From the sequence record PZ534534.1: a stretch of DNA of 64,000 nucleotides; one strand, 5' to 3'. This document shows positions 486 to 34,166 of this stretch, in pieces. The position numbers were made by a program, and so were the translations under genes. Every line of letters starts with the position of its first letter. The stretch's first letter is position 1. The stretch comes from a phage. A model generated the notes under the pieces. The model was given only the letters and a program-made list of their open reading frames with translations, was not told the DNA's origin and made no database searches.

Positions 486-2231
486 ATGGCGCAAGACATG
501 ACAAGCTTTGAGCAGGCGGTAGATCAAGTAATTGTTGATTCTGAACGTTTGCACCTGATTGTCAACGGTAACGCTGTGGATGAAGTTGTCGTAGAGGATG
601 GGACCACCATCCCTACGGTACGAAAAGCCATGCTTGACACCCTTTATTTTAAAACGCCACCGATCCCTTGGGCGTATGGTGCATCCACAACAGTTTTTAA
701 CCAGCTGTACGAGTTTAAAGGGGACACAGGCCCTCAGTGGTGGTACGCTCCCGCAGCATCAAAATCTAACCCGGTTAGAATGCCAGCAGATCCTTCACAA
801 TCTCCAAACTGGAGATTATATACCGATTCTGCAGTAATGGCAAAATACTACGCAAAACTTAACAGTCCGAGGTTCGAAGGTGACCCGCGAGTACCTACGC
901 CTCCAATGGACGACAAATCCGAGTCTATAGCAAACACAGAGTTTGTTGTTGACTATGTGGATAGCATATTTGAAGCCATGGAGGGAATGAAAGTTACTGT
1001 AGGATCTTTGGTGGTAAAAGGTCTTACAGAACTTGCTAACACTATAGTTGGTGGCACACTCACCTTACATGGGCCTGTTAATGGAGCAGATTCTACTGCA
1101 CGCTTCAGGAACCTAATCCTCACGGCAAATACTTCTACACTTACTTTTGCGTGGAGTGATCCTAAGCATGCAGACTGGAGAAGCACAGAGCTGCAACCTC
1201 ATGAAGTGTCCACCCACAGGGTTATAGCTGACACTATAACTTCTGGGAAACCAGTGGCTAATAATAACGATGTGCATTTTGATGGTCTAGGTAATAACTT
1301 TTTTGACTACGTGTACATTCGTGGTAATGCCATGAAGGCAGCAACCGAACCGACATTGCAGGTAGATGGAACCACCAGGGTTAAGAACCTTGAGGTGACA
1401 GGCACTGTTACAGGGATAACCTACTCTGTCGATGGCACCATGATTTACCCTAGCTATATTGAAAGCACGGGGGACGCATTAATAAATGGTGATTTAGAAG
1501 TTGGCGGATCTGTAGTTATTCGAGGTACAGCCTCTATCCAAAACATAGCTCTGAATACCCTAAGAGTCAATGAGCGTGCAACTTTTGAAGGGGAAGGGCT
1601 TACAGCCAACAAAGGTGTAATTACCGAGCTGACAACCACTACTTTAACTGCAACAACTGCAAACTCTGAAAACTGCAACGTTACCAGAAACTTGCAGGTA
1701 AATGGAGATGTTAGTTTAAACGCAGCAGGGACGGGCACCACCTACCTTCACAACCTTGAAATATCCGGCACAGTGACTGGGTGGCTGCCAGACTTCTCTA
1801 ATGTCAACTTTGTTTGTAATGGCATTAACTCCAGTGGCAAGATAACCACCTCTCAAGAAATTGAGGCGGGTAAAACCATTACTGCCCCTACTTTCCACGC
1901 AGGAAAGGTAGATTTTGATTTAGAGGAGGTTGACGCGTCCAGTGGGACATGGACACCTAACGGGCAGGCCAGTATGTATGTTGTCCACGCGAAAGGGGAT
2001 TTTACAATAGGACAATGGCCTGGTACATCAGCGGAAGATAAACCTTATCCATTCACTGCGGTTATCTATGTCATTCAGGATGCTGTAGGTCACAACGTGA
2101 CTTTGCACGATAAGTATGCTATCCTGTCGGCAACGCCTGTTATTAATAACAAGGCTAATAGTGTTACCTTGCTGCAATTAACATATTGTGGTGTTGGTGA
2201 TATCGTAGACGTAGTAATTGCACAACGTTAA
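486..2231 (+). CDS. putative tail fibre / structural protein (581 aa)
   Basis: AAGGAG RBS 6 nt upstream of ATG. Thr/Gly/Asn-rich beta-strand repeats (TGTVTGITYSVDG, TTTTLTATTAN) typical of fibre/adhesin proteins; lies directly upstream of giant fibre gene. Product is inference. Confidence 0.55.
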   Translation: MAQDMTSFEQAVDQVIVDSERLHLIVNGNAVDEVVVEDGTTIPTVRKAMLDTLYFKTPPIPWAYGASTTVFNQLYEFKGDTGPQWWYAPAASKSNPVRMPADPSQSPNWRLYTDSAVMAKYYAKLNSPRFEGDPRVPTPPMDDKSESIANTEFVVDYVDSIFEAMEGMKVTVGSLVVKGLTELANTIVGGTLTLHGPVNGADSTARFRNLILTANTSTLTFAWSDPKHADWRSTELQPHEVSTHRVIADTITSGKPVANNNDVHFDGLGNNFFDYVYIRGNAMKAATEPTLQVDGTTRVKNLEVTGTVTGITYSVDGTMIYPSYIESTGDALINGDLEVGGSVVIRGTASIQNIALNTLRVNERATFEGEGLTANKGVITELTTTTLTATTANSENCNVTRNLQVNGDVSLNAAGTGTTYLHNLEISGTVTGWLPDFSNVNFVCNGINSSGKITTSQEIEAGKTITAPTFHAGKVDFDLEEVDASSGTWTPNGQASMYVVHAKGDFTIGQWPGTSAEDKPYPFTAVIYVIQDAVGHNVTLHDKYAILSATPVINNKANSVTLLQLTYCGVGDIVDVVIAQR

Positions 2232-26923: not shown

Positions 26924-27688
26924 TTGAAATTCATCTACAAAGAACACTACCACAAAGGTGTTGTGTGGAGTCTATTTGACGGGTCTGGTGGTGCAGTTAT
27001 TGACTGGGCAAAAGCTGGGTACCTGTGCCTGTGCTTTAATGCAGAAGGTGCTGACCACGGCAGTTATGCAGAGGTGATAACCGATCATCCTAACATTCAC
27101 TATGTGGATTATTGGATTGACCCATGGTTCCCTCAAGAAACTTTTTGCATGTATCCAGCTCCAGACTTTATTCTTGCATTTCCTCCGTGCACGCATTTAG
27201 CGGTATCAGGAGCTGCACACTTTAAGAAAAAGCTGGCTAAGGACCCACTGATCCAAATTAATGCTGTAAAGGATGCTCGGGTTGCGGAAGAGTTGGGAGA
27301 GATTTACGATTGCCCGTGGCATGTAGAGAATCCTGTAGGTGTTATGTCCACACTGTGGCGCAAACCTGATTACCGTTTTCACCCTTCGGATTATGGCGGG
27401 TATTTACCGGAAGATGATGTAAATCCATGGTTTCCTGAATTTATAGCTCCACGTGATGCCTATCCAAAAATAACTTGCGGCTGGATAGGTAATGGATTTA
27501 TAATCCCAGCCACAAAACCTGTCCCGCAAATAGTTGACGTGGTTAGCGGGTATTCCATGCAACACGCCAAGCTGGGTGGAAAGAGTGCAAGAACGAAGAT
27601 GATTCGAAGCCTCACACCACGTGGCTGGGCAAAAGCCGTATTCTTAGCAAACGAGCCTGTAGTAAGGAGCAGAATTAATGGGAAGTAA
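26924..27688 (+). CDS. DNA cytosine-5 methyltransferase
   Basis: Motif I SLFDGSGG (FxGxGG), motif IV FPPCTHLAVSG (PC dipeptide), motif VI HVENPVG (ENV) read in order. Start set to TTG 26924 after AGGAGA RBS because track start 26894 (GTG) lies in terminator hairpin. Confidence 0.6.
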   Translation: MKFIYKEHYHKGVVWSLFDGSGGAVIDWAKAGYLCLCFNAEGADHGSYAEVITDHPNIHYVDYWIDPWFPQETFCMYPAPDFILAFPPCTHLAVSGAAHFKKKLAKDPLIQINAVKDARVAEELGEIYDCPWHVENPVGVMSTLWRKPDYRFHPSDYGGYLPEDDVNPWFPEFIAPRDAYPKITCGWIGNGFIIPATKPVPQIVDVVSGYSMQHAKLGGKSARTKMIRSLTPRGWAKAVFLANEPVVRSRINGK

Positions 27689-29756
27689 ATTTATGGCATC
27701 TGCATACAACCGTTTCGGTGAGCCAAACCCGGTTGCAACAAGATACAAAAGTGGGGGTAGTATGAAACGAGACTATCGTGATGAAAAAGAGGTTGAAACT
27801 GTAGAGACTGTTTTAGAAAATACTAAAATTGTCCCTGTCCCACAACAAAATATCGGTCTGATGGCTGCACAATATTTTGGTGTGCGATCAGCATTGTCCC
27901 AAGAAGATGGTGTGACAGTCACTGCAACATATTTCCCATATTACGACCGCTACGGAAATCTGTCCGGTTTCAAAAAGCGTGACTGGACTAAGCCGAAAGA
28001 GCAGAAAGGGCACTGGTCTGTAGTAGGCATAGTGAAGGCTAACTCCCAGATGTTTGGTCAAAAGCTGTGTGCATCTTCCAACAACCGTAAGCAGATTAAC
28101 GTTTGTGAGGGAGAAGGTGATGTTATTGCAGCATGGCAGGCTGCATATCAGATACAAGTAAAAGGGATTCTCACCAACGCTAAAGCCCCGGCAAAAGTGA
28201 AGCAGTGGGCTAAAGAGGTCCAGGACGGGATCGACGCAGTTATCAACGGTGGTGATCTGGCAGGAAAACCCTGCCTACCTTTTGTTGGAATTAACTGTGG
28301 ATGTGCAAACGCAGTAGATACTTTTGCAAACAATGAGAAATTTATCCGTAGCTACGGAACAGTGGTCCTTGCAATGGACAACGATGCAGCTAACGAGATA
28401 GAGAAGCAAAAACACGTTATCAAAGGTGTTGAAGCCACACATAATATCGCAGCATTTTTGATGGCTGATAACGTTTACCACGTGGAATATCCTGGCGAGG
28501 TAAACGACCCTGATGGTGTAAAAGATATCCGTGACATGCTGAAGGCTAAAAAGCTGGAAGATATTGTAAACATGTTCCGGCATCCTGTTAAGTATGTGCC
28601 GGATGCTGTGTCGGATTTAGAAGACTTCTCTATCGAATCTTTGCGGAAAAAGACTTCCAACGGGGTAGATATCAGCGCAGAGTTCCCAAAACTGCAAAAA
28701 ATGCTGAAAGGCTTGCACAAAGGGACACTTGTAATGCTTACAGGTCCATCAGGAGGCGGTAAAACAACTGTAGCTAAAAAACTGGAACACTGTATTGCAA
28801 GATACCTAATGGACCCGACATGTCCAAAGGCTGATGATTACGAAGAGGATGATCGTCTATGCATGATTCATCTTGAGGAGGACCCAGAGGAAGCAATTAA
28901 CTCCTTGTATGCAAACCAGTTAGGGTTTGATGTTAAAGAGTTTGTTGAAGATCCTAGCCAGTTTTTAACTGATCAAGAACACGCAGAGATTCACCAATCA
29001 TGGGCAAAAGCTGGAAAAATCAAAGTGTTCAAACATTTCGGATCTATTCCGGTGGACGAGTTGATTACCAAGCTTAAGCAAATGGTTTGCCTGTACCATT
29101 GCCGTTATATTGTGCTGGATCACCTGTCCATGGTAATTTCAGGGCTTAATGTTAAGGATGAGCGAAAAGAGCTGGACATGGCTATGACCCAACTGGCTGC
29201 GTTTTGTAAGCAGTTTAACGTGTTTATCCTAGTGATCGCTCACCTCAAACGTACAGAGATTGTGCCTCCTAAGGACAAGGATGGTAACCCGTTACCTTTC
29301 TGGTATCCTGTGCGAAAAGAGAATTTGCGAGGATCGGCTGGGCTTGAACAGTTGAGTTGGGTAGTCATAGGTGTTGAGGCTGAAGAAATGGTAGATCGTT
29401 CTCGTGGTCGTGTCCGTTTAGTAGGTCTTAAAAACCGTCCAGCAAAAACATTGGGTATTGCGGATACTTTGGTTATGGACCCACATACAGGTAAGTTCCA
29501 TGATGCCAGTAATTGGTACTGGGACAAAGAAATGCAGATGTTTACAGACGGAGAAGGTGGGGAGGTTGTTTGGAGACCTCAGGCCATGTTTGAGGACCAA
29601 GAGCATGCAGTTGTAGAAACACCTATGGGCAAGGTTGTAGCTGATAAGGTTGTAACTCCTACTATTAAGCCTGTTGACACGCAGGAAGACCTCCAGTACG
29701 ATGATCCATCTTCTGATCCGGTCCCCGGTTTTGAAGATGATGAAACACCTTTTTAA
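27678..29756 (+). CDS. primase-helicase (TOPRIM primase plus DnaB-like helicase, T7 gp4-like)
   Basis: TOPRIM motifs NVCEGEGDVIAAW and VVLAMDNDAANE in middle; helicase Walker A MLTGPSGGGKTT and Walker B YIVLDHLSM in C-terminal half. No N-terminal zinc ribbon seen. Confidence 0.65.
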   Translation: MGSKFMASAYNRFGEPNPVATRYKSGGSMKRDYRDEKEVETVETVLENTKIVPVPQQNIGLMAAQYFGVRSALSQEDGVTVTATYFPYYDRYGNLSGFKKRDWTKPKEQKGHWSVVGIVKANSQMFGQKLCASSNNRKQINVCEGEGDVIAAWQAAYQIQVKGILTNAKAPAKVKQWAKEVQDGIDAVINGGDLAGKPCLPFVGINCGCANAVDTFANNEKFIRSYGTVVLAMDNDAANEIEKQKHVIKGVEATHNIAAFLMADNVYHVEYPGEVNDPDGVKDIRDMLKAKKLEDIVNMFRHPVKYVPDAVSDLEDFSIESLRKKTSNGVDISAEFPKLQKMLKGLHKGTLVMLTGPSGGGKTTVAKKLEHCIARYLMDPTCPKADDYEEDDRLCMIHLEEDPEEAINSLYANQLGFDVKEFVEDPSQFLTDQEHAEIHQSWAKAGKIKVFKHFGSIPVDELITKLKQMVCLYHCRYIVLDHLSMVISGLNVKDERKELDMAMTQLAAFCKQFNVFILVIAHLKRTEIVPPKDKDGNPLPFWYPVRKENLRGSAGLEQLSWVVIGVEAEEMVDRSRGRVRLVGLKNRPAKTLGIADTLVMDPHTGKFHDASNWYWDKEMQMFTDGEGGEVVWRPQAMFEDQEHAVVETPMGKVVADKVVTPTIKPVDTQEDLQYDDPSSDPVPGFEDDETPF

Positions 29757-29814: not shown

Positions 29815-30549
29815 ATGAACGAGTTCAGAGACCACTGTGTAGCCAACCACCTGTGGTCAGAGATACTGGAGTATGACGGTCAAAATCTTTTTTGGAAGAT
29901 AGACATTCTGGCAGGTAGCGGTGTAGGATATGTTAAAACTTCAGCAGGCTCCAGAGCTGACAAGGGGCAAGATGCTGATGGCAGGCCTGTAGTTAGTCTA
30001 GGAAAGCATTGCACTAAAGGTGCCCACGTCATAATCTGGGAAATGTTTAACGGCCCTGTACCGGAAGGGTATGAGGTTGACCACATCAAGGAGATAAGGG
30101 AAACAGGTGGTGTGGCTGATAACAGTATTCAAAATTTGCAACTACTCGAGCCCACAGATAACAAAAAGAAAAGTTGCAAGATACCTCGTAGCAACAACAA
30201 ATCTGGCAGGGTCGGGGTGCACTATTCTGAAGAAAGAGATGCATGGATAGCTCAAGGCACAGACTCTGTAGGGGAAAGGGTCTGGCTAGGCCAGTACAGA
30301 ACTTTTGAAGAGGCAGAGTGGGCAAGAAAGTTCTTCGAAGATAATGGTTTTTCGCACAAGAGTGGAAGAGCCGTGCAGTATAATAATACCAGCGGTTGCT
30401 CAGGGGTGAATTGGGATAAAACCCATGAAAGATGGGTAGCCAGAATTTATGTAGATGGTAAAAGGAAATGCCTTGGGTATTTCAAGAATAGGGACGATGC
30501 AATAGCTGCAAGAAAGAATGCTGAGAAGAAACAGGAGGGGACAGTATGA
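29815..30549 (+). CDS. HNH homing endonuclease with AP2 DNA-binding domains
   Basis: HNH core GYEVDHIKEIRETGGVADNSIQNLQLL; two AP2-like segments (GVHYSEERDAWIAQ..., GVNWDKTHERWVARIYVDGKRKCLGYFKNRDDAIAARKNAE). Free-standing between primase-helicase and DNA polymerase. Confidence 0.65.
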   Translation: MNEFRDHCVANHLWSEILEYDGQNLFWKIDILAGSGVGYVKTSAGSRADKGQDADGRPVVSLGKHCTKGAHVIIWEMFNGPVPEGYEVDHIKEIRETGGVADNSIQNLQLLEPTDNKKKSCKIPRSNNKSGRVGVHYSEERDAWIAQGTDSVGERVWLGQYRTFEEAEWARKFFEDNGFSHKSGRAVQYNNTSGCSGVNWDKTHERWVARIYVDGKRKCLGYFKNRDDAIAARKNAEKKQEGTV

Positions 30550-32969
30550 GTAATTGGTGCTTCGATCTGGAGGCCTCTGGGCTTTTGGAAGACCCAGATC
30601 TTTATTATCACTGCGGTCTGTTTAAAGAGCTGAATAAGAACCGTTTTATGCTGTTCCTTCCTCTAAATGACCGCACACACTACTCCGAGGAGGATATAGA
30701 AAAGGCCAAGAACTTCATTCTGGCAAAGAAAACTCTTTATAAAGATTTTGAAGTTCGCATAGCAGATTTTTCGGAGTTGGAAGGTTGGCTTACAGGCAAT
30801 TCCGACTGGTCACCAACAGCTTTGAACTGCCATAACTGCTACAGTTATGACTTTATGCTGATGGAAAGATTATCCGGTATTCATTTTGATATGTTCCGTG
30901 ATCCTAAATGCATGGGGACTATCAACGACCACCAGGTTAACCTGTTTGATACGTTGGCGATGAGTCGAATTTTGTGGCCTGATCGCCCTTTACCAAAAGG
31001 TTGTCCGGACTCTGTATTCAACCCGGTTACTAAGAAAATGCAGCCTGTTGGTCCTCACGGCCTTATGGCATGGGGCTACGCCCTTGGTAACCAGAAAGTT
31101 CAAATTGATGACTGGCGCGATCTTCCGTTGTGGAAGTATGTGGATCGTGTATTCGAGGACGTTATCATCCAGGAGCTGCTCTGGAAAGAGCTGGTAGCGG
31201 AATCAAAAGGTGTATTCTACGGCAAATCTGACATGCAGAACTTTATGTACGATCCTGCCAAAGAGAAGCCGAAAGGGTTCAAGAAGATCACCTGGAAGAA
31301 CGCATTACGCCGAGGCATGCTGCAGCACTTCCTGATGGAGCTGCAGGCCCGTCAGGGTGTGTATTTCGACATAGACGGGGCTATTGCTTTACGTGACCGC
31401 TGTGATGCGTGGATGAAAGAGATCGCTGATCGTGTTGAACCTCAACTTCCTTTAAAAGAGTTATCAATATCTCAGCGGCCTAAATTCCCTGAAAAGCCGT
31501 TCAACCAAGATGGGACAATTTCCAATAATGGCTGGAAATGGTTAAAAGATAAGCTTGGCTACCCTGTAGACATGAGCGCTTTAGAGTTCAAAGCCCCACC
31601 TAAGCGAGCATTTACCTCTACAGGAGATGTCAGTAAGATAGGGATAAAATGGTGTGAAGAGATGGGCTGCAAAGACCCCGATAAGATGGCTGATTTCTTG
31701 AGAGGCTATATTAAGGGCACCTCCACACCACAACCTTTACCTAAAGAGCTAATGGATCAGGCAATAAGTGATCTACAGCAGAAGCGAATGCCGGACTGCA
31801 AGATACCTATGAAAATCAGCAACCAGGACGACATTAAGCGATACCTGATCAGTGCTGGTTGGCTTCCGACAATGTGGAGAACTAAGGATGTAACTAAAGA
31901 CAGCAAGAAGAAAGCTCTACCTGATGCAGATGTTGATGCACGAGTATATGCATATATGGACGAGCTTTTAGAGTCAGAGTATTGTGACCTGATTATCAAC
32001 TTCTGGAACAAAACTGATGCTAAGTTCCAGACAACCGTGCACAAGTTCCGAAGCTTTCCTAACTCCGAAAGGATTAAAAAGGAAGTATTCGGGAAAATAC
32101 GTAGAAAAGCTAGGGCACTTATTACTTCTCCGCAACTGAAAGATACGTTTGGACACCTATGCCCGAATCTTGAAAAATTGAACGGAGAGATGGCTAAAGA
32201 TATCGTCTTGTGGTTATCATTGCGAAACCGCAGATCGGTCCTTGATCCAATCAAGGAGGATAAGGTTGATACTGGTCTTCTTAATCACCCACGTTTGAAG
32301 ATTGACCATAAGCTTCCTGCTAAAAGTTCTGGGTTAACAAACACTTCACGACAGAAACACAGTATTTGTGCAAACATGCCTAAACCATCTCCTAAAGTGG
32401 TTATGGGTAAAGAGATGCGTAGTCTGTGGGGTGTTCCTCCTGGATACTTTCAGATCGGTATTGACGGGTCCAACTTAGAGCAGCTTATCGGGGCTTGGGG
32501 TGCCTTTGAGTTCGACAACGGCTTGTATTATGATGTTGTAAGTAACGGGGACGCACACCAAAACAATGCTGAGGCATATACAAAAGTAGCAGGCAGAGAG
32601 GTGTCTCGTAACGACGGTAAACCTATCACGTATGGGGTTATGTACGGGGCACAAAAAGATAAAGTTGCAGATATGCTGGACATCTCTCCAGAGTTGGGAC
32701 AAAGGGTAATCGATGCACTTTGGGATGCCAACCCTGGTCTTAAGGGGCGTAAAGAGGATCTGGAGAAATTCTGGGAAGCAACGGGTAAGAAGTTTATCTA
32801 CTCTTTTGATGGTCATGCTATCTGGACCCGATCTAAACACTCTTTACTTAATGCATACCAACAGAATGGTGGTGCATCGCTGTGTGACTTAGTTGGGATA
32901 CTCATGCACCACCAAATGGTGAAGCGTGGGTGGTACGATGAAGGTGTCCGTCGTATTATCTATTACCAT
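30546..32969 (+). CDS. DNA polymerase, family A (T7 gp5-like), exon 1
   Basis: Exo I motif FDLEASGL at N-terminus; motif B RNDGKPITYGVMYG; FDGHAIWTRSKHSLLNAYQQNGGASLCDL parallels T7 gp5 segment before motif C; frame ends ...IIYYH then stop, inside motif C. Confidence 0.75.
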
Positions 32970-33812
32970 AAATAACATTGTGGCTTCATAGAGTGATCTA
33001 TGTCGAATAACCTCTTTAATTGACGGGAAAGCTAAGTTGACTTTTACACCTGAGTATGGTAAAAGCTCAATATGCTAATCCGCAGCGAAGACTAAAGGGG
33101 TGTAGTTAAAATGGCTAGAACAGCTGATTATCACGGGTATACCGTGTTTGATGATGGAACAATACCTTTATCGAAACGTGATCATACAACAATGTTTTGT
33201 TTTGATAATGGTAGAGGTTACCTTTGCGTAACCATGCTAATCGAGGGGAAGCAGTGCACAAAAGGTGTCCACCACCTGGTTGCTGAATGCTTTGTATCAA
33301 ACCCGGATCCTGAAAGGCTCACATGGGTGAACCATAAGGATGGGAATAAGTACAACAATGCATACTGGAACCTGGAATGGACCACCCCTGGTGGAAATAT
33401 CAAGCACGCCTATGATAATGACCTCAGAGTAAGGCCAGTTGGTGAGTATAATGCCAACGCTGTGCTGACAGAAGATGAGGTAATAGAGATTTGCGAACTG
33501 TTGCAGAGTGGTCTACGACAATGCGAGATTAGGGATCTTGGATATCCTTATGAGACCGTCAGGGCTATAAAGCAAAGAAGACAGTGGAAACATATCTCTA
33601 AAAACTACACCTGGTAGTAACGTTCAGAGACTATCGAAAGCATAGCTCCAACACAGGTTGGTGTGAAGAAGCGAGTAGAGTAGGCCAGCAAGTGCGGTCG
33701 AAATGGGAGGTGCCTTGTTACCAAGGCAGTGAGGTAGTCCGATCCATACAGGAAACTGTATGGCTATGCACGTAATGGTGCGGGGTAGCTTAACGACCTA
33801 CCTGAACAGATG
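32970..33812 (+). mobile_element. group I intron interrupting DNA polymerase motif C
   Basis: Exon 1 ends in T (cat), intron ends in G (...cagatg). Joined exons read YYH|DEYQLQV, restoring YHDE motif C. P7-like CAGAGACTA and TAGTCCGA segments lie downstream of internal ORF. Boundaries +/- a few nt. Confidence 0.6.
33111..33617 (+). CDS. intron-encoded HNH homing endonuclease
   Basis: VHHLVAECFVSNPDPERLTWVNHKDGNKYNNAYWNLEW is a typical HNH_3 signature; ORF lies inside the intron. Confidence 0.65.
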   Translation: MARTADYHGYTVFDDGTIPLSKRDHTTMFCFDNGRGYLCVTMLIEGKQCTKGVHHLVAECFVSNPDPERLTWVNHKDGNKYNNAYWNLEWTTPGGNIKHAYDNDLRVRPVGEYNANAVLTEDEVIEICELLQSGLRQCEIRDLGYPYETVRAIKQRRQWKHISKNYTW

Positions 33813-34166
33813 GATGAGTACCAACTTCAGGTCCCTGACACGCCTAAGTATAAGACTGTGTACACCTTCGACACAATTGAAGAATTGGAAGCATTTAAGG
33901 CAGAGCAGGAAGCCAAACTTCATGTGTTCGACGGTCATAAGTACAAAAAGGCACGCAAGGATGAGGACGGAAACGAAGTGGTTGACAGAGACGGAAACAC
34001 GGTGTACGATCCTATCCTGAACGATGACGGAAAGCTTGAACTTATCTGGAGCCCTGTGGGTGAAATGGTGGTGCATTGCTTCTGGCAAGCTTCTAAAATG
34101 ATGGGAGTCCCGTTCCAGATCACAGGTGAATACTTGTGTGGTCGTAATTGGGGTGATTGTCACTAA
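33813..34166 (+). CDS. DNA polymerase, family A, exon 2 (C-terminal motif C region)
   Basis: Begins DEYQLQV and ends ...GEYLCGRNWGDCH, parallel to T7 gp5 C-terminus ...GKMGPNWAICH; same frame as exon 1. Confidence 0.65.
   Translation, partial: DEYQLQVPDTPKYKTVYTFDTIEELEAFKAEQEAKLHVFDGHKYKKARKDEDGNEVVDRDGNTVYDPILNDDGKLELIWSPVGEMVVHCFWQASKMMGVPFQITGEYLCGRNWGDCH

Follow-up and report, generated by a model that had tools for sequence, protein, structure and literature searches.

A mobile group I intron with an HNH endonuclease gene, predicted to interrupt motif C of the DNA polymerase in an rV5-like phage

Introduction

How is a DNA polymerase made from a gene whose reading frame stops inside the catalytic motif of the enzyme and resumes, in the same frame, 843 nucleotides (nt) further on? 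The question is raised by a 64,000-nt stretch of phage DNA (sequence record PZ534534.1), the whole of which is called the window here and to which all coordinates refer unless another genome is named. An interpretation of its letters by themselves, the sequence-only reading, had proposed that a family A DNA polymerase gene at 30546..34166 is split within motif C by a group I intron with an HNH homing endonuclease. Our analysis leads to the same view, and we consider it very probable that a mobile self-splicing group I intron with an HNH endonuclease interrupts motif C of this polymerase. The boundaries of the intron, its ribozyme fold, the covariation of its helices, the family of its endonuclease and its presence or absence at one site were obtained directly from the analysis described here.

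Dozens of rV5-like coliphages (genus Vequintavirus), including phiWec189, FFH2, ECML-10 and WalterGehring, match 30546..34166 at 95-98% nucleotide identity, the identity to phiWec189 and FFH2 being 98%. On this similarity, with which the neighbouring genes agree, the source of the window is an rV5-like (Vequintavirus) E. coli myovirus.

The interrupted polymerase gene

The gene and its interruption comprise the following parts.

30546..32969, + strand: DNA polymerase exon 1, 808 codons, ending ...RRIIYYH (open reading frame list, Pfam DNA_pol_A and T7 gp5 matches, intronless allele)
32970..33812, + strand: group I intron, 843 nt, IA2-like, AAATAA...CAGATG, with omega G at 33812 (RF00028 match, excision relative to slur16)
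33813..34166, + strand: DNA polymerase exon 2, 117 codons (DEYQLQV...NWGDCH) plus stop (PHROG 8888, 4.5e-58; contiguous in intronless phages)

The open reading frame (ORF) at 30546..32975 on the + strand encodes 809 amino acids and ends ...EGVRRIIYYHK*. The sequence-only reading had described an 809-residue frame followed by a stop, which is correct, but had it end in YYH; the last residue is a lysine, and this lysine and the stop are the first six bases of the intron, AAATAA. The 843 nt of the intron equal 281 codons and the same frame resumes, as had been claimed, with DEYQLQV, whose first codons at 33813 are GAT GAG TAC (DEY). A second ORF at 33810..34166, with an ATG at 33810, reads M-DEYQLQV...GRNWGDCH over 118 amino acids. 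Removal of 32970..33812 leaves an in-frame family A polymerase of 925 amino acids, about 106 kDa, with the junction ...IIYYH|DEYQLQV..., so that the spliced protein carries ...IIYYHDEYQLQV... at the exon junction; the predicted RNA junction is ...UAUUACCAU|GAUGAGUAC... and the peptide across it is IIYYHDEYQLQVPDTPK. The base before the intron is U32969 and its last base is G33812, in agreement with the U and the G that the sequence-only reading had placed there.

The exact extent of the insertion can be read from phages that are without it. With the last 267 amino acids of the conceptually spliced protein as the query, tblastn found an uninterrupted 801-nt piece, at 98-100% identity, in slur16, EC22.5-2, rV5_ev147 and ECP2309. 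At the empty site the DNA of slur16 is TATTACCAT|GACGAATAT (CCAT|GAC), and the inserted block is therefore exactly 32970..33812, with no sliding ambiguity and no other register. In distant intronless relatives (Salmonella KE22, Cronobacter CR8 and Vibrio ICP1) YYHDEYQL is contiguous, as it is in slur16 and ECP2309.

Comparison with T7 gp5 identified the host gene and the place of the break within it. Structures of T7 gp5 match the spliced protein at E=1.9e-16 in an alignment that crosses the junction. BLASTP against T7 gp5 (from NC_001604), an alignment that had been proposed as a check, gave 7e-20 and set YYHDEYQL opposite T7 WVHDEIQV (residues 651-658), with the HDE of motif C on T7 H653-D654-E655. 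The break thus falls where T7 gp5 passes from His653 to Asp654. The C-terminal NWxxCH is found in both proteins (GRNWGDCH in the spliced protein, GPNWAICH in T7 gp5), which bears out the earlier claim that the join recreates an HDE motif C and a T7-like end. By these alignments the interrupted gene encodes a family A DNA polymerase of the T7 type, and the break in its motif C comes after the His codon and before that for Asp. Because the intron separates the motif C histidine from both carboxylates, the product of an unspliced mRNA would be without both of them. Exon 2 alone gave chance matches only when searched against solved structures; its identification as polymerase comes from PHROG 8888 and from the uninterrupted genes of intronless phages.

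Some differences between alleles are clustered beside the junction. When 33813..33832 is compared with 751..770 of the slur16 locus L004, the first 18 nt of exon 2 contain five synonymous differences between the window and intronless slur16; the last 40 nt of exon 1 contain one difference. The cluster is compatible with co-conversion, or with a target site that has diverged on the side of exon 2. FFH2 and JLBYU08 have the intron together with a slur16-like exon 2, so the correlation of these differences with the intron is not clean.

The intron as a group I ribozyme

The Rfam model RF00028 matches the intron over its full length (32960..33762, E=2.3e-5 locally and 0.0015 window-wide), and this is the sole group I match in the 64 kb. 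A natural ORF-less allele of 329 nt in phage JLBYU08 scores 72.5 bits (E=2.1e-18) with the same model. Over its first 121 nt and its last 194 nt this allele departs from the intron of the window at a single base, and in the Rfam alignment of this allele GUUCAGAGACUA and UAGUC of the window land on the P7 consensus. The two P7-like segments that the sequence-only reading had picked out, TCAGAGACTA at 33624..33633 and TAGTCCGA at 33735..33742, are the two strands of this helix.

Copies of the intron at the His|Asp site were gathered from Vequintavirus (the window, WalterGehring, MaxTheCat/rV5 and JLBYU08), Avunavirus (Av-05 and 24-2-1), Mydovirus (AV124), Seunavirus (SSE121) and Certrevirus (phiTE, CB7 and PBES02), and further from Aeromonas 4L372D, Pseudomonas SPA01 and Vibrio qdvp001. 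Twelve ORF-trimmed copies from eight phage groups formed the covariation set, to which P7 was added as a pseudoknot. From these RNAalifold recovers P1, P2, P3, P7.x, P8, P9, P9.1 and P9.2. Standard pairs are formed in 97.8% of cells, compared with 38-43% when the partners are slid by 1-3 columns, and compensatory changes occur in 30 of the 54 pairs; none of 500 shuffles reached the observed values. Such changes are present in each of P2, P3, P7, P8 and P9, including the P3/P7 pseudoknot. All six pairs of P2 vary while its GNRA loop is kept, and in P7 the exchanges are G-C to A-U and U-A to C-G. With the RF00028 match, the score of the JLBYU08 allele and this strong covariation, the intervening sequence is, on sequence evidence, a group I ribozyme, as had been claimed. 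The following elements were placed on it.

32966..32983, + strand: P1, exon CCAU and intron AA (32966..32971) with guide UUGUGG (32978..32983); RNAalifold helix 1, 100% paired in the 12 copies
32976..32979, + strand: possible P10, CAUU with exon 2 GAUG 33813..33816, 4 bp, read from sequence
32987..33002, + strand: P2 hairpin with a GUGA (GNRA) tetraloop, compensatory changes in 6/6 pairs
33011..33016, + strand: P3 5' strand CCUCUU, pairing with GGGAGG 33705..33710; 3/6 pairs compensatory (helix 3)
33020..33085, + strand: P4-P5-P5a domain, P4 UUGaCGGG 33020..33027 with UCCGCAG 33079..33085, P5a 33041..33065 (Rfam alignment, minimum free energy fold)
33091..33107, + strand: P6a 5' strand, paired with 33603..33618; the HNH ORF has its Shine-Dalgarno sequence, AAGGGG, here
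33603..33618, + strand: P6a 3' strand, the last codons and UAG stop of the HNH ORF
33624..33633, + strand: P7 5' strand UCAGAGACUA, fitting the Rfam consensus GUUCAaAGACUA in the ORF-less allele; two compensatory pairs with 33735..33742
33634..33704, + strand: P7.1/P7.2 extension between P7 and P3' (helices 5-7), invariant GUAG before P7.2
33705..33710, + strand: P3 3' strand (covariation count)
33711..33728, + strand: P8 hairpin, 5/6 pairs compensatory
33735..33742, + strand: P7 3' strand UAGUCCGA, pairing with 33624..33633
33744..33763, 33769..33780 and 33783..33803, + strand: P9, P9.1 and P9.2 hairpins (helices 9-11), compensatory changes

The U32969-G32980 wobble at the 5' splice site stands in a 6-bp P1 that is invariant among the 12 copies, and the equivalent of G33812 is the last intron base in every copy. 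P4/P5 appears in the minimum free energy fold of most of 13 copies; Av-05 is an exception, and the segments taken from SPA01 and qdvp001 were extracted wrongly. Between P7 and P3' there is a 71-nt insert containing two covarying hairpins and the invariant GUAG. In the description of subgroup IA2, P7 and P3' are separated by P7.1 and P7.2 with a GUA linker (PMC3428280), and by the fit of its insert to this published description the intron appears IA2-like. The third base of the Asp codon that follows the intron is T in 12 of 13 intron-bearing copies (GAU), whereas among five intronless alleles three have GAC and two GAU; that this base follows the presence of the intron is, from these sequences, a weak trend.

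The endonuclease ORF and its position in P6a

33111..33617, + strand: HNH homing endonuclease gene, 168 amino acids, in the P6a loop (PHROG 59, I-HmuI, identical protein in FFH2)

The HNH ORF that the sequence-only reading had reported in the gap is located at these positions. Its 168-residue product matches PHROG 59 ('HNH endonuclease') at 1.5e-36, and among solved structures I-HmuI (1U3E, E=3e-5) is its one significant match, with the motif vHrLVA...HkDGNkxNN...NLxW aligned. An identical protein has been deposited for phage FFH2 as 'H-N-H homing endonuclease'. From these matches the ORF is an I-HmuI-like HNH endonuclease gene. In other genera the endonucleases are homologous at 46-76% identity, those of phiTE and 4L372D being more distant, and in rV5, MaxTheCat, JLBYU08, 24-2-1 and qdvp001 the ORF has been lost and the ribozyme kept.

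The duplex of P6a has a predicted energy of -17.7 kcal/mol over 10+4 bp. The pairing in this stem of the Shine-Dalgarno sequence with the last codons and stop of the same ORF suggests that the endonuclease may be poorly translated from the folded RNA.

Proposed splicing and homing

In the mechanism that we propose the pre-mRNA would fold into the P1-P9.2 core, and exogenous guanosine would attack after U32969, held in place by the U-G wobble of P1. The freed exon 1 would then attack after omega G33812, aligned by the 4-bp P10, and ligation would give an mRNA for the 925-residue polymerase (...YYHDEYQL...) with motif C restored. RNA that remained unspliced would stop two codons into the intron and yield the 809-residue product without the motif C carboxylates. 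The HNH enzyme would, by analogy, nick or cut the intronless polymerase alleles of co-infecting relatives, and repair would copy the intron into them, while the P6a stem would limit translation of the endonuclease in folded RNA. Among Vequintavirus genomes with 98-100% identical exons three states are found at the one site, namely intron with ORF, intron without ORF and empty. A three-state polymorphism at one fixed site is the signature that a homing cycle predicts, and supports this part of the model; it also agrees with the earlier proposal of homing into a conserved site.

Several points weigh against this interpretation. At the Rfam gathering threshold a search of the whole window gives no report of RF00028. 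The gathering score is 50 bits, the intron scores 29.4 bits, and it is reported only when an E-value threshold is used; the covariance-model search that had been suggested as a check of the sequence-only reading returned the expected full-length match, but at a score below that of the family. The low score arises because the 532-nt ORF-holding loop in P6 is not absorbed by the model and P7 is mis-assigned. Pfam scores are also below their cut-offs, for DNA_pol_A on the polymerase (28.6 bits against 34.3) and for HNH_3 on the 168-residue ORF (17.7 bits against 24.8). Around P6 the alignment used for covariation was hand-trimmed, and P4-P6 is outside the formal counts because MAFFT put the copies with and without a bulged A in different registers. 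We infer splicing in this phage from the homologous intron of Pectobacterium phage CB7, for which it has been shown, and we infer by analogy the activity and target of the endonuclease and homing itself.

It could be argued that the polymerase is split and never spliced, with the 809- and 118-residue products made separately and assembled into an active enzyme. The ATG at 33810 does open a 118-residue ORF, many GenBank records give two polymerase coding sequences, and the study of CB7 cites the mobE-split NrdA of Aeromonas phage Aeh1 and reports one HNH-associated CB7 intron as unspliced (PMC7344957). This ATG is not conserved, however, the introns of rV5 and MaxTheCat ending in CTATTG, and the second piece annotated in rV5 starts at a GTG inside the exon. 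Such a split would also part His from Asp-Glu within a single catalytic motif, and the spacer is a conserved, covarying ribozyme that would have no reason to persist unused. Since the ATG is unconserved, the ribozyme covaries and the homologous CB7 intron splices (PMC7344957), a two-subunit polymerase is very unlikely. More improbable still is that the intron is a decaying relic that splices poorly, so that the polymerase is effectively a pseudogene and another enzyme replicates the DNA. The score under the Rfam threshold could be taken in this sense, and the existence of ORF-less and shortened variants means that the element does erode. The score is nevertheless explained by the 532-nt loop, a 72.5-bit copy has the same core but for one base, and every core helix is intact in the window. 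Dozens of viable isolates have the same arrangement, purifying selection acts on the exons, which around the junction encode the same amino acids as intronless slur16 (100% identity), and no second polymerase was seen in the region examined, in which no search was aimed at one.

Removal at the protein level, by an intein, was considered because the relative Mangalyan has an intein-like in-frame insertion elsewhere in its polymerase gene. The polymerase frame of the window has a stop as the second codon of the insertion and another at 33786, and the inserted sequence is without intein motifs and is that of a group I ribozyme; the in-frame stops exclude an intein. An intron removed from the RNA is the interpretation that we retain for the window.

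Relation to known polymerase introns

The nearest intron with experimental support is in CB7, where reverse transcription PCR and Sanger sequencing of cDNA established that both HNH-containing polymerase introns splice (PMC7344957). The one that holds CB7_50 lies at ...RRIIYYH|DEYQLEV... and begins AAGTAACATTGTGGC, and by this site and this start it is homologous to the intron of the window. WalterGehring, MaxTheCat, CB7 and phiTE all share with the window the host gene, the YYH|DE site and a homologous ribozyme core. They share its internal guide too, AAATAACATTGTGG, which in CB7 is AAGTAACATTGTGG. The HNH gene of WalterGehring is 97.6% identical to that of the window, and the copies in the BASEL collection differ from the window only at strain level. 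MaxTheCat and rV5 have a 276-nt ORF-less intron with a core ~69% identical to that of the window. CB7 and phiTE, unlike the window, have a shorter and more distant HNH protein of 127 amino acids and an enlarged P5 domain.

Polymerase introns are also known from phages outside this group. The T7-like phages PhiI (ΦI) and W31 are reported, in a secondary source (PMC3428280), to have an intron at the residue numbered 881 in E. coli Pol I. As in the window, it is in a T7-type family A polymerase and has an HNH ORF in P6a, a likeness of description and not of sequence; PhiI and W31 are podoviruses, whereas the window is from an rV5-like myovirus. We take residue 881 to be the histidine of His881-Asp882-Glu883 in E. 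coli Pol I, and hence the junction to be the same His|Asp junction as that of the window intron. A T7-like genome with the same intron was sought among weak blastn and tblastn matches and none was found, a match to T5S1 of the Zobellviridae being uninformative. Salmonella phage S.Kent 1-2-1 was rejected as a T7-like carrier, as its intron is at the SPO1-type site ...TGRLSASNP| of a different polymerase. In this genome (OR850875, a 42.6-kb unannotated contig; L012 1841..2527) RF00028 scores 51 bits and there is a 180-residue HNH ORF at the SPO1/Pf-WMP3-type site. The introns of SPO1, SP82, Bastille and Pf-WMP3, with I-HmuI, I-HmuII, I-BasI and I-PfoP3I, resemble that of the window in being group I introns of family A polymerases with a nicking HNH enzyme of the same family. 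They are at residue 674 in the fingers region (PMC3428280), in contrast to the motif C site of the window. PHROG 59 is the family that has been reported for the polymerase introns of Bastillevirinae.

It is possible, and we propose it tentatively, that one ribozyme and HNH lineage holds the His|Asp junction across diverse phages, that the endonuclease has repeatedly been lost from it and that the P6a stem is a conserved translation switch tied to the unfolded precursor. The hosts of such a lineage would be the five Vequintavirinae genera, Pseudomonas Pakpunavirus SPA01, Aeromonas Plateaulakevirus 4L372D, Vibrio qdvp001 and possibly PhiI and W31. Our search of the literature found no comparative description of the His|Asp intron lineage or of the P6a switch.

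Other insertions in related polymerase genes

Further insertions were seen in the polymerase genes of relatives. phiTE (L009 1906..2620), CB7 (L011), SSE121 (L014), Av-05 (L007) and 24-2-1 (L013) have a second HNH-containing insertion upstream of the His|Asp site, at ...GKGVTYG|(V)MYGAQ... within the region of the conserved motif B (YG), where the window runs on without a break as KPITYGVMYGAQ. Mangalyan (OR449013, L002 1461..4859) has an in-frame insertion of 323 amino acids in polymerase exon 1, at ...SNGDAH|QNNAEAY..., which is not present in the window. It begins CYSGDTQIL, ends VAVCGN and is followed by Cys, and it resembles an intein that contains an endonuclease domain. The length of exon 1 in VB-EcoM-WM points to the same insertion.

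A part of the intron of 50-80 nt (query 85-157, P5a-P4'-P6) has an 85-94% identical counterpart some 70 kb distant in Vequintavirus genomes, for example at slur16 93350..93427. This locus is outside the window, and the record of rV5_ev168 names it 'Terminase, large subunit'. Judged by sequence, the match probably reflects related terminase introns described for rV5.

Neighbouring genes and existing annotation

Two genes stand upstream of the polymerase.

27678..29756: T7 gp4-like primase-helicase, upstream of the free-standing HNH-AP2 gene
29815..30549, + strand: free-standing HNH-AP2 endonuclease gene (Pfam HNH_3 5e-12, plus AP2; PHROG 99)

The HNH-AP2 gene lies between the primase-helicase and the polymerase and its stop overlaps the polymerase start (ATGA). 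JLBYU08 and Mangalyan are without it, the polymerase following directly after the primase. Its absence from these two phages indicates that it is a second, independently mobile element beside the polymerase.

A two-piece join for the polymerase is already present in the BASEL-collection records of WalterGehring (MZ501111) and MaxTheCat (MZ501094), the former with the homing endonuclease nested inside the join; by the authors' own statement these intron boundaries were set by comparative genomics. In most GenBank records of rV5-like phages, those of rV5, FFH2, FV3 and phiWec189 among them, the polymerase is entered as two unrelated coding sequences or as hypothetical proteins. Introns of the terminase gene are described in the rV5 genome paper, which takes a 775-residue product as the whole polymerase, and for that reason the polymerase intron was missed there. 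The reference rV5 genome (NC_011041) does hold a 276-nt ORF-less copy of it (L010 3001..3276), across which the small hypothetical ORFs gp222 and gp221 are annotated, together with a truncated second polymerase piece. An exact look-up in the protein collection found neither the spliced 925-residue protein nor the 809-residue product.

Implications

The polymerase intron is real and was correctly read, but it was already known, having been annotated in this phage group and its splicing confirmed in a homologue. What remains of value is the correction of records and possibly the breadth of the lineage and the arrangement of P6a, which may be undescribed. The exact splice sites would correct records in which the polymerase is split, as well as the pangenome and phylogeny pipelines that use this polymerase as a marker. 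For the phage, an essential enzyme would be made dependent on RNA self-splicing; this opens no new question, and the locus would be one more case of essential replication genes targeted by homing elements at their most conserved codons.

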